From contig JAPLOL010000111.1 of assembly GCA_026400735.1 (NCBI GenBank), forward strand, positions 1,680-65,679: a DNA stretch of 64,000 bases, written 5' to 3'. This DNA is from Alphaproteobacteria bacterium (GTDB taxonomy: Bacteria > Pseudomonadota > Alphaproteobacteria > Caulobacterales > Aquidulcibacteraceae). The position numbers were made by a program, and so were the translations under genes. Under the pieces are notes generated by a model. The model saw only the letters and a program-made list of their open reading frames with translations, had not been told where the DNA came from and made no database searches. This document shows, piece by piece, positions 7,267 to 15,255 of this stretch; position 1 is the stretch's first letter, and every line of letters begins with the position of its first letter.

Positions 7267-9283
<2,017 letters not shown>

Positions 9284-9355: not shown

Positions 9356-10963
9356 GTGGTTACGGCGACAATCGACAGAACCGAAACGCCCATCTGGCTG
9401 CGCGTTGGCGAGATCGTTCTTGCTGCGCTGATCTATTTCGCGCTCGCGCGCGCCAGTCTCTACTTTGCTTCGCTGAATGCAAGCGCCACCCCGATCTGGC
9501 CGCCGACAGGTCTCGCTATCGCGCTGCTGCTCATGCGCGGCAACATGTTGCTGCCCGCAATTATCGCCGGCGCCTTCGCCGCGAACTACGCGGTCACACC
9601 AAACATACCAACTGCTGCGATGATTGCCGTCGGCAACACGCTCGAAGCCTTCGTTGCGACATTGCTCGTTCGGCGCTGGGCGAAGGGCGAGCACGTTTTT
9701 CAATCGCCAATCGGCGTTGGAAAGTTCGCCGTCATTGTCACCGCGGCAGCGGCGCCGATCAGCGCCACGATCGGCGTCGTCGCGCTCGCCAGCACTGGCC
9801 ACGCTGCCTGGAGCCAGTTCACACCGATCTGGATCACTTGGTGGCTCGGCAATCTCGCGGGCGCCATTCTGACCACGCCCGCGCTCGTTCTATGGGCGCG
9901 TACGCTGCGCGGTGAAGAACCCGCGCCGCTTGCTGCCAATGCGCTCATCTCGTTTGCCTCGGCGTTGTTCATTGCGACGGTCGCGTTTAGTCCGATCTCG
10001 CCGGCGCCAGCCTCCGTCCGAAGCGCGCTCGCATTTCTTGTCATCATGCCGCTCTTGTGGTCCGCGCTTCGCTTAGGCCTGCGCGAAACTGCGACGATGG
10101 CATTGCTCATCTCCAGCTTCGCCGTTTGGGGCGTCATCGCCGGATCGAGCCCGTTCATTCAACCAACGCTGAACGCATCTTTGTTGATGCTCGTCACATT
10201 TATCGTGTCCGCAACGCTCCCAAGCCTGGCGCTCGCCGCCGAACGACACCAATCGCAAACGCTTCTCGATCAAACGCGCCACGAGCTTGTGCAGGCCCAA
10301 AAGCTTGAAGCTCTCGGCACGCTCACCAGCGGTGTCGCGCACGATTTCAATAATTTGCTCGCGGCCATCGGTGGCGGCATACGTCTGCTCGAACGCCAAA
10401 ACGAAGAGCGCGTGCGCACCATGGAAGCCGTGAGCCAAGCGCTCGAACGCGGCTCAGGCTTGACGCGACAGCTGCTAGCTTTCGCGCGCCGCGAGCCCCT
10501 CAAACTTGAGCGCATCGATACCACACAAGCGCTCGAAAGCGCTCACGGCCTTATCCGGTCTTCGATCAAGGATCACATCCGTTTCGAAATGCAGATCACG
10601 CCTGGCCTCTGGCCGGTGAAGGCAGATCGCAATCAATTGGAAGTCGCGCTTTTGAATCTCGCGGTGAATGCGCGCGACGCCATGCCCGAGGGCGGCGACC
10701 TTCTTGTGCAGGCCGAGAACATTGTCGCAGACGATCAAGAGAAGTGCCTCGCGATCAGCGTTGCCGATACTGGCGAGGGCATGAGCCAAGAAACGCTCGC
10801 CCGCGCCTTTGAACCTTTTTATTCGACCAAAGCCGCAGGTCACGGCACTGGCCTCGGTCTCGCGCAAGTCTACGGGTTCGCGACACAATGTGGCGGCAAG
10901 GTAAGCATCGACTCTGCGCTCGGGAGGGGCACCACCGTTACGATCACGCTGCCACGCGCCTAG
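9356..10963 (+). CDS. sensor histidine kinase with N-terminal MASE1-type membrane domain
   Basis: A multi-TM N-terminus carries ATPIWPPTGLAIALLL (MASE1-like). It also has the H-box GVAHDFNNLL and N/G boxes NLAVNARDAM and GTGLGLA. Confidence 0.85.
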   Translation: MVTATIDRTETPIWLRVGEIVLAALIYFALARASLYFASLNASATPIWPPTGLAIALLLMRGNMLLPAIIAGAFAANYAVTPNIPTAAMIAVGNTLEAFVATLLVRRWAKGEHVFQSPIGVGKFAVIVTAAAAPISATIGVVALASTGHAAWSQFTPIWITWWLGNLAGAILTTPALVLWARTLRGEEPAPLAANALISFASALFIATVAFSPISPAPASVRSALAFLVIMPLLWSALRLGLRETATMALLISSFAVWGVIAGSSPFIQPTLNASLLMLVTFIVSATLPSLALAAERHQSQTLLDQTRHELVQAQKLEALGTLTSGVAHDFNNLLAAIGGGIRLLERQNEERVRTMEAVSQALERGSGLTRQLLAFARREPLKLERIDTTQALESAHGLIRSSIKDHIRFEMQITPGLWPVKADRNQLEVALLNLAVNARDAMPEGGDLLVQAENIVADDQEKCLAISVADTGEGMSQETLARAFEPFYSTKAAGHGTGLGLAQVYGFATQCGGKVSIDSALGRGTTVTITLPRA

Positions 10964-11505
10964 CGCTTGCTGAGGGGCGGGGAATAGACGTGCAGCGTCA
11001 CCAGAACCGCGTCACCGTCATTGCCGAGCGAGTGCGTCATGGAACCAGGCGCGCGCGTCACGATGCCGGATTTCAATTCGCGCTCAATAAAACGCCGCTC
11101 GCCTTTGGTGGTCTCGCGCGAGCGATAGACGTGCTCATGCGCTAGGCCCTCAACGATGCGAACGATGCAGGTGGATTGCCCGTGATCGTGAACCGGGCTT
11201 CGTTGTCCTGGCTTCCAAGTCAGCGCCAACATCTCCACGCGCTCGTCGCGGTAGAGCAGAGTGCGGACGTAATTTGCGTCGTCCTCGCACACAGCAAAGC
11301 CCAACGCTTTCGCATCAACGCACATCATCTGAAGCGCTACCTCAATCGCGTCGAGATCGATTCTCTCCGGCGAACGCAGCAGCTGTACGAGTTCAGCCAC
11401 CACATCCGGGGGAACATGCGACAAATCCCGTTCGACGGGCTTGGCTGCTTCAGCGCGCTTTGCACGCGAAGCGACTGTTGGGATGTCGGGGCTCAGTTCC
11501 GTCAT
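10960..11505 (-). CDS. cysteine dioxygenase type I family cupin (thiol dioxygenase-like)
   Basis: It has the WKPGQRSPVHDHGQS metal-binding motif, a later H in MTHSL, and the LHVYSPPL tail typical of the CDO_I family. Confidence 0.7.
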   Translation of the reverse strand: MTELSPDIPTVASRAKRAEAAKPVERDLSHVPPDVVAELVQLLRSPERIDLDAIEVALQMMCVDAKALGFAVCEDDANYVRTLLYRDERVEMLALTWKPGQRSPVHDHGQSTCIVRIVEGLAHEHVYRSRETTKGERRFIERELKSGIVTRAPGSMTHSLGNDGDAVLVTLHVYSPPLSKR

Positions 11506-11670: not shown

Positions 11671-12930
11671 CTAAAGCGAAAGCGCACTCCGTGACTCCGC
11701 CGTCACGACGTCTTCACGCACATAGCCAGTGCGTCCGTCCGCGAGCGTCACCCGCAGCCACCAATGCTCGCCTTCACGGATTTTGCCTGTGGCTTGCATT
11801 TGTGCTGCGGCCGGGACGCGTACAATCACCCGCGCGTTGCGTCGCGGCGCCACACGAACCTTTGCGCCTGCCCGTCCGGCATTTACGCCGACGGTTGGCG
11901 CAATATCCGTCACGCCCGCGATCACCTGCGCCACTGGCGGCGCAGAGAACGTGACGACATCCTCACGCACAAACCCGACGCGTCCGTCTTCAAGCGCAAC
12001 GCGAAACCACCATTGGCCTTGCACCATACGTCGTCCGGTTACGCGCATTGGCGTACGCGCAGGCGCCTCCAAAATCAGCTCGCCTGTTGTCAGCGGATAA
12101 TCACGCACGTTCGCGCCGTTGCGTCCGGCGTAGAGAGGGCGCTCCGGCGCGTACTCTTGGACTGAGACGTCCATCGGGGAGTAGGGCGGGTCTTCGGCTG
12201 TGATCGCCTCAGCGGCAGTTGTGACGCTCGCCCAGCTTGCGCGCGCTTGCGTGAGTAGCTCAGGCTTCACAATCACGCCGACCACTGATGCTGCCACCGC
12301 CCCGAGAAATAGGACGCGGAGCAATGGAAAACGCGGCGCAGTCACGCGCCGTATCTGCCTCTCCAGTTCGCGCTGTTCTGCCTTGCGCAACTTGCGCTCC
12401 TCCTTCCGCGCTTGAGCTTCGGCGCGACGCGCATCGCGCCCGCTATCTTGGGGCGCTGTCTGGGGCGCCACAGCAGCGGCGTGCAGTCGCTCAACACTTC
12501 GGAGCGCGGATTCAAGACGACGCTGTCCGTCGTAGAAGCCCGAATTGGCGATAGATGGGTCGGAATAAAAGTAGACAGTATTTAGGCCTGCGAGTTCGCG
12601 CGCGGCGCCATGCAGAGGCGCAGGCAACACCAGCACCACGCGTTTGCCGAGGCGCTGTGCTTCCTCGACCTCCCATACACACAGATCTGCGTTCGCGGAT
12701 TCGGTAGTCAGCACCAACACCAGCGCGTCGGCATCTTCGATCAAGCGCCCGAGACGCTCTTCCCAACCTACGCCGCCGCTCTCATAGCGATCTAGCAGCG
12801 GCTGGAAGCCCGCATTGTGGAGGAAGGCGCCAAGCTGGTCGGCGAACCCCATATCCGCACGAGCATGTGAGACAAACACCCTGATCCGGTTGTCAGCCGC
12901 AAAGCCGCGCGCGTTCGCCATGGCGCCCAT
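11671..12930 (-). CDS. TIR domain - coiled coil - TM helix - two bacterial SH3 (SH3b) domains
   Basis: The N-terminus IRVFVSHARADMGFADQL...ADALVLVLTTES...WEVEEA is TIR_2-like, followed by a charged ARKEERKLRKAEQRELERQ segment and the TM helix LLRVLFLGAVAASVVGVIV. Two repeats follow (ANVRDYP...WWFRVALEDGRVGFVREDVV and AKVRVAP...WWLRVTLADGRTGYVREDVV). Confidence 0.8.
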   Translation of the reverse strand: MGAMANARGFAADNRIRVFVSHARADMGFADQLGAFLHNAGFQPLLDRYESGGVGWEERLGRLIEDADALVLVLTTESANADLCVWEVEEAQRLGKRVVLVLPAPLHGAARELAGLNTVYFYSDPSIANSGFYDGQRRLESALRSVERLHAAAVAPQTAPQDSGRDARRAEAQARKEERKLRKAEQRELERQIRRVTAPRFPLLRVLFLGAVAASVVGVIVKPELLTQARASWASVTTAAEAITAEDPPYSPMDVSVQEYAPERPLYAGRNGANVRDYPLTTGELILEAPARTPMRVTGRRMVQGQWWFRVALEDGRVGFVREDVVTFSAPPVAQVIAGVTDIAPTVGVNAGRAGAKVRVAPRRNARVIVRVPAAAQMQATGKIREGEHWWLRVTLADGRTGYVREDVVTAESRSALSL

Positions 12931-13080
12931 TTAGGCTGCTCCTCACATCAGGGAAACGCTCAAGCGATCAGTATGGATTGTCCAACCTGAACGGCAGTGT
13001 AGCGCCGGTCACGGTCAGCAGGTCCAACCGGGGCTAGGTTCTTATCGTCGTCTCCAGCGACGAAGGAAGGAGCCCCACCA

Positions 13081-13176
13081 ATGTTGATCCGTTTCGCCTG
13101 CATCATGCTCGCGATGACCGCTTTCGTGCCCGGCGCCTTCGCCGCGCTCACCCAAGCGGCCCAAATCGTCGCCTAA
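13081..13176 (+). CDS. 31-aa signal-peptide-like small ORF (hypothetical)
   Basis: An AAGGAAGGAG Shine-Dalgarno lies 8 nt upstream of the ATG. The product is MLIRFACIMLAMTAFVPGAFAALTQAAQIVA (AFA-A cleavage-like site). It is too short for the supplied ORF track. Confidence 0.25.
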   Translation: MLIRFACIMLAMTAFVPGAFAALTQAAQIVA

Positions 13177-13385
13177 TCGGCCCTCGCCGCAAAAATATTT
13201 CGCGACAAGCGGAGGACTCGATCTGGGAGTCTGGCGGATCAGCGGCCACCACATCTTGCGCCATTCTCCTAAGTTGCTGATTTAGCGCGACTCTTTGGAC
13301 TCCTTTTGTTCCGCAAGCTCCTGATTCCGTAAAGATTTCATTAAGGATCAGGACTCATTTTGCCGACCGCATTGGGGTCGGTACG

Positions 13386-13679
13386 ATGTCGAAACATGGC
13401 TCCGCCTTGCTCAGCGTAGGTCTGGGTGCGGCGATCCTCTATCTCGGCGCGCAAGCCGTCACGGGCCGTCAGGGCCTCGTGGCGTACGTTGATCTGCAAG
13501 CGCAGGAGCGCGTCCTTGAACAGCGCGTCGCCCAACTCTCAGAGGAAGAGGCAAATCTCCAAGCCCGTGCCGCCCGCTTGCAACCAGGTGAGCATTTCGA
13601 TCGCGACTACTTGGACGAACGCGCTCGCATCACGCTTGCTGCCGGTGACGGCGAAGAGATTGTCTTCGATCTCAACTAG
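13386..13679 (+). CDS. ftsB: septum formation initiator (FtsB/DivIC family)
   Basis: It has one TM helix plus a leucine-zipper coiled coil. It sits in the conserved alphaproteobacterial position between eno and pdhA. Confidence 0.8.
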   Translation: MSKHGSALLSVGLGAAILYLGAQAVTGRQGLVAYVDLQAQERVLEQRVAQLSEEEANLQARAARLQPGEHFDRDYLDERARITLAAGDGEEIVFDLN

Positions 13680-13807: not shown

Positions 13808-14800
13808 ATGGCGAAAGCGAACGGCAAGCAAGCAAGCGCAGAAGCGACCAAAGACGAATTGCTTCAGTACTATCGCGACATGCTGCTGATCCGCCGCTTC
13901 GAAGAGCGCGCCGGCCAGCTTTACGGCATGGGTCTGATCGGCGGCTTCTGTCACCTCTACATCGGCCAAGAGGCGGTCGTCGTCGGAATGCAAGCTGCCC
14001 TAACAGAGGGCGACCAAGTCATCACCGCCTATCGCGATCACGGCCACATGCTCGCAGCGGGCATGGAAGCCAACGGTGTCATGGCTGAGCTAACAGGCCG
14101 CAGCGGCGGCTACTCGCGCGGCAAAGGCGGCTCGATGCACATGTTCAGCACCGAGAAGGCGTTCTACGGCGGCCACGGCATCGTCGGCGCACAAGTTTCG
14201 CTCGGCACCGGCCTCGCGTTCGCGAACCAGTACCGCAAGGACGGCAAAGTCTGCCTGACGTATTTCGGCGACGGCGCGGCCAACCAAGGCCAAGTCTACG
14301 AAAGCTTCAACATGGCAGCGCTATGGAAGCTCCCGGTCGTCTACATCGTCGAGAACAATCAGTACGCGATGGGCACCGCGATCCAGCGTTCAAGCTCGGA
14401 AACGCATCTCCATAAGCGCGGCATCAGTTTCAATATTCCCGGCGAAGAAGTGGACGGCATGGATGTCGTCGCTGTGCGCGAAGCCGGTAAACGCGCCGTC
14501 GAAAATGCCCGCGCAGGTAACGGTCCGACTTTGCTCGAAATGAAAACTTACCGTTATCGCGGCCACTCGATGTCGGACCCGGCCAAGTATCGCACCAAAG
14601 AAGAAGTCGACGAGCAAAAGGCCAAGCGCGATCCGATCGACCACGTGAAGAAGCTCATCACCGATGCGGGCTACGCGAGCGACGACGATCTCAAAGCCAT
14701 CGACCGCGAAATCCGCGCAGTCGTCACCGACAGCGCGACCTTCGCGCAGGAAAGCCCAGAGCCGGATCCGAGCGAACTGATGACGGATATCTATCTGTGA
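13808..14800 (+). CDS. pdhA: pyruvate dehydrogenase E1 component, alpha subunit
   Basis: It has the TPP-binding region GDGAANQGQVYESFNMAALWKLPVVYIVENNQYAMGT and YRYRGHSMSDP. Confidence 0.95.
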   Translation: MAKANGKQASAEATKDELLQYYRDMLLIRRFEERAGQLYGMGLIGGFCHLYIGQEAVVVGMQAALTEGDQVITAYRDHGHMLAAGMEANGVMAELTGRSGGYSRGKGGSMHMFSTEKAFYGGHGIVGAQVSLGTGLAFANQYRKDGKVCLTYFGDGAANQGQVYESFNMAALWKLPVVYIVENNQYAMGTAIQRSSSETHLHKRGISFNIPGEEVDGMDVVAVREAGKRAVENARAGNGPTLLEMKTYRYRGHSMSDPAKYRTKEEVDEQKAKRDPIDHVKKLITDAGYASDDDLKAIDREIRAVVTDSATFAQESPEPDPSELMTDIYL

Positions 14801-15255
14801 ACGACACGCCAACTTACACGGTCGCGGCCAACCTCCGTTGGTTTGGTCTCTTCTACGTCGCTGCTGTCGTCGTCTTGGTGGTGATCGTCGGCGTTCTGCA
14901 AACTATGGGCGTTGAGTTGCCGACGACCGGCCTCGGCATCGGCCTGTTTGCTGGGGTCGTCGCAGCTGCGGGTCAACGCTTTGCGACGCGGCGCGCTTGG
15001 ACCAGCCGCGATCGCAACCTGCTTGCGCTCGGCTACATGATCGTGGCGGCGTCGATTTCTTGCTTGGTCGCGGCGTCACTGATCGTCGTCGACTCGAGCA
15101 CATACGATGAGATAGCGCGCAGCGGCGCCTTGGCTGGAATGGCTGTGCTGGTCGTGGCGGTCGTGGGCGCAATCTATTTCGTCACGGCGCGCCTGACATT
15201 GAGGCTGATCGCGCGACAACTTGCGGCGAAAATCGGGGGAACGCATGACGCCTGA
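14797..15255 (+). CDS. hypothetical 4-TM membrane protein inserted in the pdh operon
   Basis: Its GTG start overlaps the pdhA stop (GTGA). It has four hydrophobic segments and no recognisable domain. Confidence 0.55.
   Translation: MNDTPTYTVAANLRWFGLFYVAAVVVLVVIVGVLQTMGVELPTTGLGIGLFAGVVAAAGQRFATRRAWTSRDRNLLALGYMIVAASISCLVAASLIVVDSSTYDEIARSGALAGMAVLVVAVVGAIYFVTARLTLRLIARQLAAKIGGTHDA

Follow-up and report, generated by a model that had tools for sequence, protein, structure and literature searches.

The 64,000-nucleotide stretch of DNA analysed here (positions 1,680 to 65,679 of contig JAPLOL010000111.1, assembly GCA_026400735.1, Alphaproteobacteria, Caulobacterales), in the following called the window, contains on its minus strand a gene for a protein of 419 residues that combines a TIR domain, a single transmembrane (TM) helix and two SH3b repeats (Table 1). 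A 100% identical protein from a metagenome-assembled genome (MAG) is present at NCBI and is annotated there as 'TIR domain-containing protein'. Judged from sequence comparison, the window protein appears to be a compact offshoot from a large family of TIR proteins with one TM helix that seems not to have been studied, and it is fixed between eno and ftsB-pdhA in Terricaulis-related Caulobacterales.

Domain organisation, topology and the TIR motif

Pfam, AlphaFold2 (AF2) and Foldseek agree on the domain composition that a preliminary description, made from the letters alone, had given for this open reading frame (ORF). TIR_2 (PF13676) matches residues 18-122 with 54.7 bits (E 1.8e-14, cut-off 28), and SH3_3 (PF08239) matches two stretches with 43 bits (E 5.2e-11, cut-off 27). 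Between the two SH3b repeats the identity is 48% over 67 residues (E 2e-19), and both show the previously noticed ending WW(F/L)RV.L.DGR.G(F/Y)VREDVV. The AF2 model, built on 49 homologues, has a mean predicted local distance difference test (pLDDT) score of 78, with about 90 in the SH3b repeats and about 75-91 in the TIR domain, whose strands βA-βE comprise residues 17-21, 43-46, 69-73, 97-102 and 117-120. With Foldseek, the N-terminal part of the model matched the TIR domains of SPARTA TIR-APAZ, SARM1, TIR-STING and MyD88 (E 1e-5 to 1e-4, root-mean-square deviation about 3 Å), and the C-terminal part the SH3b repeats of YrvJ, Trichomonas NlpC2, dipeptidyl-peptidase VI, AtlE, InlB and lysostaphin. 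When the TIR region was compared as a single sequence with the PDB, the matches were at chance level only; with the family profile the TIR domains of SARM1, TLR and MyD88 were recovered.

Table 1. Features of the TIR-TM-2xSH3b locus and its neighbours (window coordinates).
Feature	Coordinates	Strand	Basis or remark
TIR-TM-2xSH3b gene	11671..12930	-	complete ORF, 419 residues, stop codon within the end coordinate
TIR domain, residues 16-145, predicted cytoplasmic	12496..12885	-	Pfam TIR_2, family profile against PDB, AF2 and Foldseek
E87 codon (motif C84-V-W86-E87), equivalent of the catalytic Glu of TIR NADases	12670..12672	-	profile alignment to SARM1 E642
Arg/Glu/Lys-rich helical tether, residues 160-199, predicted cytoplasmic	12334..12453	-	AF2 helix, low confidence
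Single TM helix, residues 201-222	12265..12330	-	hydrophobicity and Lys/Arg bias
SH3b repeat 1, residues 263-326, predicted periplasmic	11953..12144	-	Pfam SH3_3/SH3_16, AF2, Foldseek
SH3b repeat 2, residues 341-410, predicted periplasmic	11701..11910	-	Pfam SH3_3 at residues 355-407, pLDDT > 90
Conserved 5' region	12939..13014	-	Shine-Dalgarno sequence and two non-coding blocks; alignment of 11 orthologous upstream regions
Enolase (eno)	7868-9283	+	
MASE1 histidine kinase	9356-10963	+	converges on the TIR locus in class-A genomes
CDO_I cupin	10960-11505	-	E 4.1e-13; 165 bp downstream of the TIR gene, same strand
31-residue ORF MLIRFACIMLAMTAFVPGAFAALTQAAQIVA	13081-13176	+	between TIR gene and ftsB, on the ftsB strand
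ftsB/DivIC	13386-13679	+	followed by pdhA, MAPEG protein gene, pdhB
152-residue membrane protein	14797-15255	+	inserted in the pdh cluster, after pdhA and before the MAPEG gene; 44.3 bits to NCBIfam ABZJ_00895_fam (cut-off 33)

The protein contains one hydrophobic segment only, with the best 19-mer at residues 203-221 (Kyte-Doolittle mean 2.47). Five Lys/Arg residues lie on the N-terminal side of this segment and one on its C-terminal side, and no N-terminal signal peptide was seen in the protein, which together predict a bitopic inner-membrane protein of N-in orientation with the TIR domain in the cytoplasm and the SH3b pair in the periplasm. The enrichment of Lys/Arg on the N-terminal side holds in all 66 of 66 family members, and the predicted topology is that of the preliminary description. 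The latter had moreover placed a highly charged coiled coil between the TIR domain and the membrane. The charged helix is present in the AF2 model (residues 164-196), but its pLDDT is 54-70, and the segment is conserved neither in length nor in character, being replaced by short Pro-rich linkers in distant orthologues (class B, see below). A coiled coil is hence not established, and the segment is better named a tether. It is the fastest-evolving part of the protein.

The reading frame itself was assigned as follows. An overlapping plus-strand ORF (11764-12165) is favoured by a filter on the GC content of third codon positions (GC3); it was rejected, as the Pfam domains, the homologues and the low ratio of non-synonymous to synonymous substitution rates (dN/dS) belong to the minus-strand ORF. 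The composition of the TIR gene is typical for the region (GC 0.63, GC3 0.66, similar to ftsB), and horizontal transfer or a compositional anomaly was rejected on this ground.

About 67 full-length homologues were found, with identities from 100% down to 38%. In the alignment of the family profile, E87 within the sequence CVWEVEEA is positioned opposite the catalytic E642 of SARM1, the residue for which the preliminary description had asked. Among 67 family members this position is occupied by Glu in 55, by Asp in four and by Ala or Val in eight. Invariant in all 67 are D26, Q32, G41, C84, A91, P103, S130, G131, G135 and Q136, and the SGFxDGQ motif is likewise invariant across the family.

The absence of Glu follows a pattern. 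In the clade P0061-P0067 the Glu, the neighbouring Trp and a 17-residue stretch over the BB-loop region were lost together; here conservation is lowest in the TIR domain (76% identity versus 93% for SH3b), which is missing altogether from the sister clade. Furthermore, about ten clusters of proteins of 236-283 residues consist of a short cytoplasmic tail, the TM helix and the two SH3b repeats only. The gene of one of these TIR-less relatives lies in the same eno-ftsB locus directly after a Peptidase_M15 gene (L025 6242-7714). In a neighbour-joining tree of the C-terminal halves the TIR-less forms occupy two separate places, and this tree implies at least two losses of the TIR domain and at least three of the Glu. 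Since the TM-2xSH3b core persists where the TIR domain was lost, we infer that it is functional in its own right. The joint loss of Glu, Trp and BB loop, followed by faster evolution and loss of the TIR domain, suggests that the catalytic motif, where it is kept as in the window protein, works as one functional unit, and this favours an enzyme over an inert scaffold. A metagenomic protein of 492 residues (P0080) has the organisation TPR-TM-2xSH3b with the same type of SH3b repeat, showing that the cytoplasmic module on the 2xSH3b ectodomain is swappable, being TIR, TPR or none.

The eno-ftsB site

All homologues with a source name derive from Terricaulis, Hyphomonadaceae or Caulobacteraceae MAGs, and Ca. 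Viadribacter manganicus, whose genome is complete, encodes one member (WP_066766730.1). In a scan of one genome per GTDB species the gene was present in 20 species, all of the Terricaulis/Hyphomonadaceae/Caulobacteraceae lineage. Its position is constant: in 24 of 24 related loci, with protein identities from 90% to 38%, the TIR-SH3b gene lies within the interval between eno and ftsB-pdhA(-pdhB). Two gene orders were distinguished, pdhB-MAPEG-pdhA-ftsB, TIR-SH3b, (cupin), (MASE1 kinase), eno in class A, to which the window belongs, and pdhA, TIR-SH3b, ftsB ... eno in class B. Across these syntenic loci enolase stays about 90% identical, whereas the TIR-SH3b protein drops to about 40%, and by this comparison the gene has been inherited vertically for a long time at one chromosomal site, evolving faster than its neighbours. 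Relatives on plasmids or phages were not found by tblastn against 72,556 plasmids and 50,697 phage genomes.

For the whole gene, dN/dS against close orthologues is about 0.04-0.10, with 0.02-0.09 for the TIR domain and 0.01-0.12 for the SH3b part (0.01-0.08 for repeat 1), the ratios being approximate due to saturation of dS. The tether, the TM helix and the periplasmic linker evolve several-fold faster than TIR and SH3b. Purifying selection on the TIR domain is thus as strong as on the SH3b repeats, and in the clade of the window protein both are clearly functional. In two orthologues the reading frame is interrupted, with similarity continuing beyond the stop (L016 8001-9241 and L024 8001-9256; ORFs of 186 and 339 residues); they are either pseudogenes or products of insertion/deletion errors in the MAGs, and L024 is a long-read contig.

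The 51 ORFs of the window were compared with PADLOC and Pfam. They encode housekeeping functions, among others the pyruvate dehydrogenase complex, NtrC-type regulators and a D-Ala-D-Ala carboxypeptidase, and neither a ThsA, SIR2, SLOG or Macro partner nor a defence system was found among them, in line with what had been noticed from the letters; the RtcR-like matches are sigma-54 activators. A ThsA-type effector is also absent from the gene tables of ten related loci. The cupin, correctly described before as the same-strand gene directly downstream, was rejected as a partner since it is present in four of 24 loci, and the MASE1 kinase was rejected as an obligate partner, being confined to class A and absent from the class-B loci. 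Of four terminator-like sites found by a scan, none falls on the minus strand in the interval from the TIR gene to the cupin.

Upstream of the gene, a Shine-Dalgarno sequence GAGGAG (12939-12944), located 8 nt before the first ATG, is kept in the orthologues. It is followed further upstream by two conserved non-coding blocks at 12951-12961 and 12986-13014 (minus strand GAGCGTTTCCC and CCGTGACCGGCGCTACACTGCCGTTCAGG), which are present in most class-A loci and fall in the 150-bp divergent region common to the TIR gene, the small ORF and ftsB. These blocks are candidate promoter or operator elements, which the TIR gene would have in common with ftsB and the small divergent ORF. A promoter scan found no sigma-70 consensus upstream of the TIR gene, and no match of the blocks to a known sigma factor or a CtrA motif was recognised. 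By eye only, a near match (TAAA-N7-TTAA, 13331-13345) to the CtrA box TTAA-N7-TTAA was seen about 40 nt upstream of ftsB. The product of the 31-residue ORF resembles a signal peptide or a single TM segment. The conserved ORF is present in 16 of 24 related loci and differs from its counterpart in L010 by 11 synonymous and 0 non-synonymous changes, so that this micro-gene genuinely codes for a protein, one without a match in NCBIfam. In L025 a different hydrophobic ORF of 32 residues takes its place.

The eno-ftsB interval is a variable slot that often holds envelope-related genes (L025, L002, L003). In the group with 50% identity (L002 3640-7248) a 762-residue PD40/Tricorn-like protein is encoded 72 bp upstream on the same strand, and class-B loci (L003 7665-9673) contain an ATP-grasp gene resembling D-Ala-D-Ala ligase and a Peptidase_Mx gene.

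A wider family of TIR proteins with one membrane segment

With residues 1-155 as query, HMMER retrieved 3826 proteins at E<=1e-3 from 1.84 billion representatives. The window TIR thus belongs to a very large subfamily, with 1170 clusters at the stricter limit of E<=1e-10. The top 150 clusters are 45-55% identical to the window TIR over residues 10-145, including the YFYSDP...SGFxDGQ tail, and the TIR columns that are invariant among the orthologues are also found in this parent subfamily, where CxWE is invariant in 65 of 65 aligned members. The TIR domain is N-terminal and most of the proteins have 400-1100 residues. In 92 of 134 top clusters exactly one hydrophobic segment follows the TIR domain, at about residue 240-290, with a Lys/Arg excess on its N-terminal flank in 79 of 88 members. 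The C-terminal part is a WD40 beta-propeller in 40 of 65; others carry SH3_3, Sel1 or three SH3_3 repeats with a periplasmic TonB_C domain, as in P0144 (Vitreimonas flagellata WP_167755773.1; TIR-TM-3xSH3b-TonB_C). By the charge bias, the WD40 domains would be periplasmic. The layout of a cytoplasmic TIR domain, one TM helix and an extracytoplasmic domain is thus common, and the idea of an unrecognised one-off architecture, which the preliminary description had conveyed, was not upheld: the nearest TIR relatives mostly have one TM helix at about residue 250 and a WD40, SH3b, TonB_C or Sel1 domain behind it. TIR-TM-SH3b or TIR-TM-WD40 proteins were not found described in the open literature, which is no proof of absence.

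In the parent family the TIR domain is followed by a conserved helical module (WLR...LLRG..L..A..W; strict motif in 41 of 134). This module of about 90 residues is kept in P0043, P0052, P0054, P0078, P0079 and P0141, of which P0052, P0054 and P0141 are basal TIR-SH3b proteins. It is absent from the window protein, which is therefore a reduced variant of the parent family. The uncharacterised TIR-helical-TM-WD40 proteins (e.g., MDP3738680.1 from a Hyphomonadaceae MAG), which are listed in databases as 'TIR domain-containing protein', share with it the N-terminal TIR domain, 45-55% identical, the single TM helix and the positive-inside bias, and some members of the parent family even carry the same type of SH3b repeat; in contrast to them, the window protein has no helical module, two SH3b repeats instead of WD40 and one fixed chromosomal site. 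As read from the domain distribution, the most economical history would lead from a TIR-helical-TM-WD40 ancestor via a swap to the SH3b ectodomain and, in the Terricaulis lineage, removal of the helical module to decay or loss of the TIR domain in some branches.

The surroundings of these relatives are diverse. In Vitreimonas flagellata an 832-residue SMC/AAA_23 ATPase similar to LmuB of Lamassu (L029 4606-7104, minus strand; PADLOC 1.3e-21) is encoded convergently with the TIR-TM-3xSH3b-TonB_C gene, and two XRE-type helix-turn-helix genes and a pair of an extracytoplasmic-function sigma factor and FecR lie nearby; this region may be defence-island-like. Two TIR-TM-WD40 genes (L030, L031) are positioned among signalling and metabolic genes and not in defence islands. 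In the first case (L030 2757-5577) the flanking genes encode a PAS hybrid kinase, a response regulator and another TIR protein; in the second, a LuxI-type synthase gene lies nearby. P0079 is a TIR-PAS-HisKA-HATPase fusion with a TIR domain 50% identical to that of the window protein, and the TIR subtype is repeatedly tied to two-component signalling, namely by the MASE1 kinase in class A, by P0079 and in L030. A word-index search with the domain only gave short proteins or fragments. Two matches to a 'stand-alone TIR' are located on noisy long-read contigs, one directly before a WD40 gene and the other before an unannotated gene of 492 residues; the former is probably a frameshifted TIR-WD40 gene.

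Possible functions of the window protein

The reading that we prefer, tentatively and at somewhat less than an even chance, is that of an envelope-tethered TIR enzyme working from the outside in upon activation by a signal, with an output that could be either immunity or envelope physiology. The SH3b domains of cell-wall hydrolases bind peptidoglycan, and the SH3b pair of the window protein would bind peptidoglycan or another envelope ligand and thereby set the position and density of the protein in the membrane. A change in the envelope, with cell-wall damage or remodelling and attack by phages or competitors as candidates, would cluster or free the ectodomains, and the signal would cross the membrane through proximity-driven self-association of the TIR domains. 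Signalling by density and self-association, and not by a rigid helix, is proposed because the tether is variable and partly disordered. The assembled TIR domains may then cleave NAD+ through E87, resulting in NAD+ depletion or in a signal of the ADP-ribose (ADPR) type, upon which growth would slow or stop. Among TIR NADases, SARM1, plant TIRs, AbTir and SPARTA become active on oligomerisation and require the catalytic Glu, and by analogy NAD+ cleavage by the window protein would depend on E87 and on self-association. The Peptidase_M15 gene beside the TIR-less relative and the TonB_C fusion in the parent family lend contextual support to putative peptidoglycan binding by the SH3b repeats.

Several observations weigh against this model. 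The Glu is lacking in 12% of the family members, and the pair P0054/55 has no Glu and still a 94% conserved TIR domain, which fits a non-catalytic role. Moreover, in the profile alignment TLR15 and TLR2 carry a Glu at the same position of their TIR domains; no NADase activity is reported for these TLR TIR domains, and the residue alone is thus insufficient as evidence of an NADase. Binding of peptidoglycan by the SH3b domains of the window protein is presupposed by analogy, a receptor for a signal made by the TIR domain was not found among the 51 ORFs of the window, and the fixed synteny in a housekeeping locus is unusual for an immune effector.

The preliminary description had leant towards a defence-type system. 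The TIR domains of ThsB, SPARTA TIR-APAZ, TIR-SAVED, TIR-STING and single-gene E. coli systems have the TIR fold and the Glu in common with the window protein, and the TIR domain of SPARTA is among its best structural matches; unlike them, the window gene has no ThsA, pAgo, SAVED or STING partner or fusion and does not lie in a defence island. The scores of all defence models stay far below the family thresholds (ThsB_TIR 12.8 bits versus 21.2, ThcB4 28.8 versus 220). Because there is no ThsA and the scores are below the family thresholds, the window protein is not Thoeris, and it is no recognisable PADLOC system.

A single-gene anti-phage system acting by abortive infection, in which the SH3b repeats sense adsorption or wall puncture and the TIR domain kills by NAD+ depletion, would nevertheless agree with the catalytic-type Glu, with the weak similarity in PADLOC to the TIR domains of ThsB and SAVED-TIR, and with the single-gene TIR and TIR-TM systems that guard E. 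coli against phage (PMC11350192). A precedent for envelope-anchored sensing in defence is Zorya, whose ZorAB relays envelope events inward by a membrane protein with a periplasmic peptidoglycan-binding part and is alike in concept; it shows no homology to the window protein, which has no motor or ion channel and carries its effector in the same polypeptide (PMC11890865). The LmuB-like ATPase and the XRE regulators beside the Vitreimonas relative point in the same direction, and repeated loss of the TIR domain fits a costly function that is useful only sometimes. However, the gene is syntenic in a core locus in 24 of 24 loci and present in 20 species without signs of mobility and with normal composition, it has no plasmid or phage relatives and no defence genes around it in the window, its selection is strongly purifying and not diversifying, and neither of the two TIR-TM-WD40 relatives lies in a defence island. 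Synteny fixed at a core locus, the lack of partners and purifying selection thus weaken the defence reading, while the chemistry of TIR domains, their repeated loss and the gene context in Vitreimonas still speak for it; we consider it unlikely. The similarity seen in PADLOC is generic for TIR domains, the Glu is not universal and the TIR domain was lost at least twice by the tree, so the earlier suggestion of a system of the defence-island type is not supported. Its proposed mechanism, in which sensing at the envelope would be coupled to NAD+ consumption, is still plausible. That description had also held that ubiquitous core-genome cell-wall homologues would speak against its idea; the position in a core locus was indeed found, but not ubiquity, the lineage being narrow.

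Another alternative is a non-enzymatic envelope scaffold, in which TM-2xSH3b would anchor to peptidoglycan and the TIR domain would be solely an interaction or oligomerisation module, with partners perhaps in division, the stalk, cell-wall metabolism or two-component signalling. The gene is persistently adjacent to ftsB, forms with TM-2xSH3b only persist, one of them beside the Peptidase_M15 gene, the N-terminal module is swappable as in P0080, and the TIR subtype is repeatedly found beside or fused to histidine kinases. Furthermore, the Glu is gone in eight of 67 members, whereas D26, Q32, C84, A91 and SGFxDGQ are invariant, and the Glu-less P0054/55 again belongs here with its TIR identity of 94%. 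Against a scaffold stands the invariance of CxWE in the parent family. Moreover, the joint loss of Glu, Trp and BB loop, with faster TIR evolution and then TIR loss behind it, looks like the loss of one catalytic function, and the bacterial TIR domains tested so far are generally NADases (PMC9153377). On balance we regard a scaffold as rather improbable. An enzyme could also serve envelope stress or growth control and not immunity, its TIR domain making an ADPR-derived messenger or tuning NAD+ according to the state of the cell wall. Vertical inheritance, the core-locus position and purifying selection suit such a physiological role, as do the conserved 5' region common to the divergent small ORF and ftsB and the signalling neighbours (the MASE1 kinase here, the PAS kinase and response regulators in L030, the LuxI-type synthase in L031). 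Yet a receptor for the messenger was not found in the window, the family is narrow and its TIR domain dispensable in several lineages, and no bacterial housekeeping TIR signalling pathway is known; we hold this alternative to be quite unlikely.

The envelope-tethered TIR enzyme, to which we return, resembles receptors of animals in its layout. Toll-like and IL-1 receptors likewise have an extracytoplasmic ligand domain, a single TM helix and a TIR domain in the cytoplasm, and signalling by TIR proximity would be expected in both cases. Compared with Toll-like receptors, the order along the chain is inverted in the window protein, whose TIR domain is N-terminal as in type II membrane proteins. 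Its ectodomain consists of SH3b and not of leucine-rich repeats or immunoglobulin domains, and its TIR domain is of the TIR_2 type with a catalytic-type Glu. The relation is an analogy and not orthology, and adaptor signalling is without evidence in the window protein. With the SH3b cell-wall hydrolases YrvJ, the NlpC/P60 dipeptidyl-peptidase VI, AtlE and lysostaphin it shares the tandem SH3b fold and the envelope location, and differs in having no hydrolase domain. The tail-anchored 'SH3 and anchor' family TIGR04211 matches with 13.6 bits, against a cut-off of 65.

At present, the TIR proteins of bacteria are regarded as sensors or effectors in phage defence that act within the cytoplasm. In a survey of E. 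coli TIR proteins, membrane-receptor features of the Toll-like type seemed to be absent from bacterial TIR systems (PMC11350192). The family described here suggests that the layout of a sensing domain outside, one TM helix and a TIR domain inside exists in bacteria. If the TIR domain is regulated from the periplasm, this would show a coupling of envelope events to NAD+ metabolism and would define a new receptor class in bacterial signalling or immunity, with bearing on the evolution of TIR receptors. The relatives in Vitreimonas flagellata and Ca. Viadribacter manganicus make the idea testable, and the natural losses of the Glu or of the TIR domain with the SH3b core kept provide ready-made comparison strains. 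The observation on the wider family is a more valuable lead than the single gene. As a bolder proposal, which we hold to be doubtful although worth stating, bacteria may possess a widespread class of transmembrane TIR receptors (more than a thousand clusters) in which a periplasmic WD40, SH3b, TonB_C or Sel1 domain controls a cytoplasmic TIR enzyme. This class would be a counterpart of the Toll-like receptors in layout, and the window protein would be its peptidoglycan-sensing version, reporting damage or invasion of the cell wall to NAD+ metabolism.

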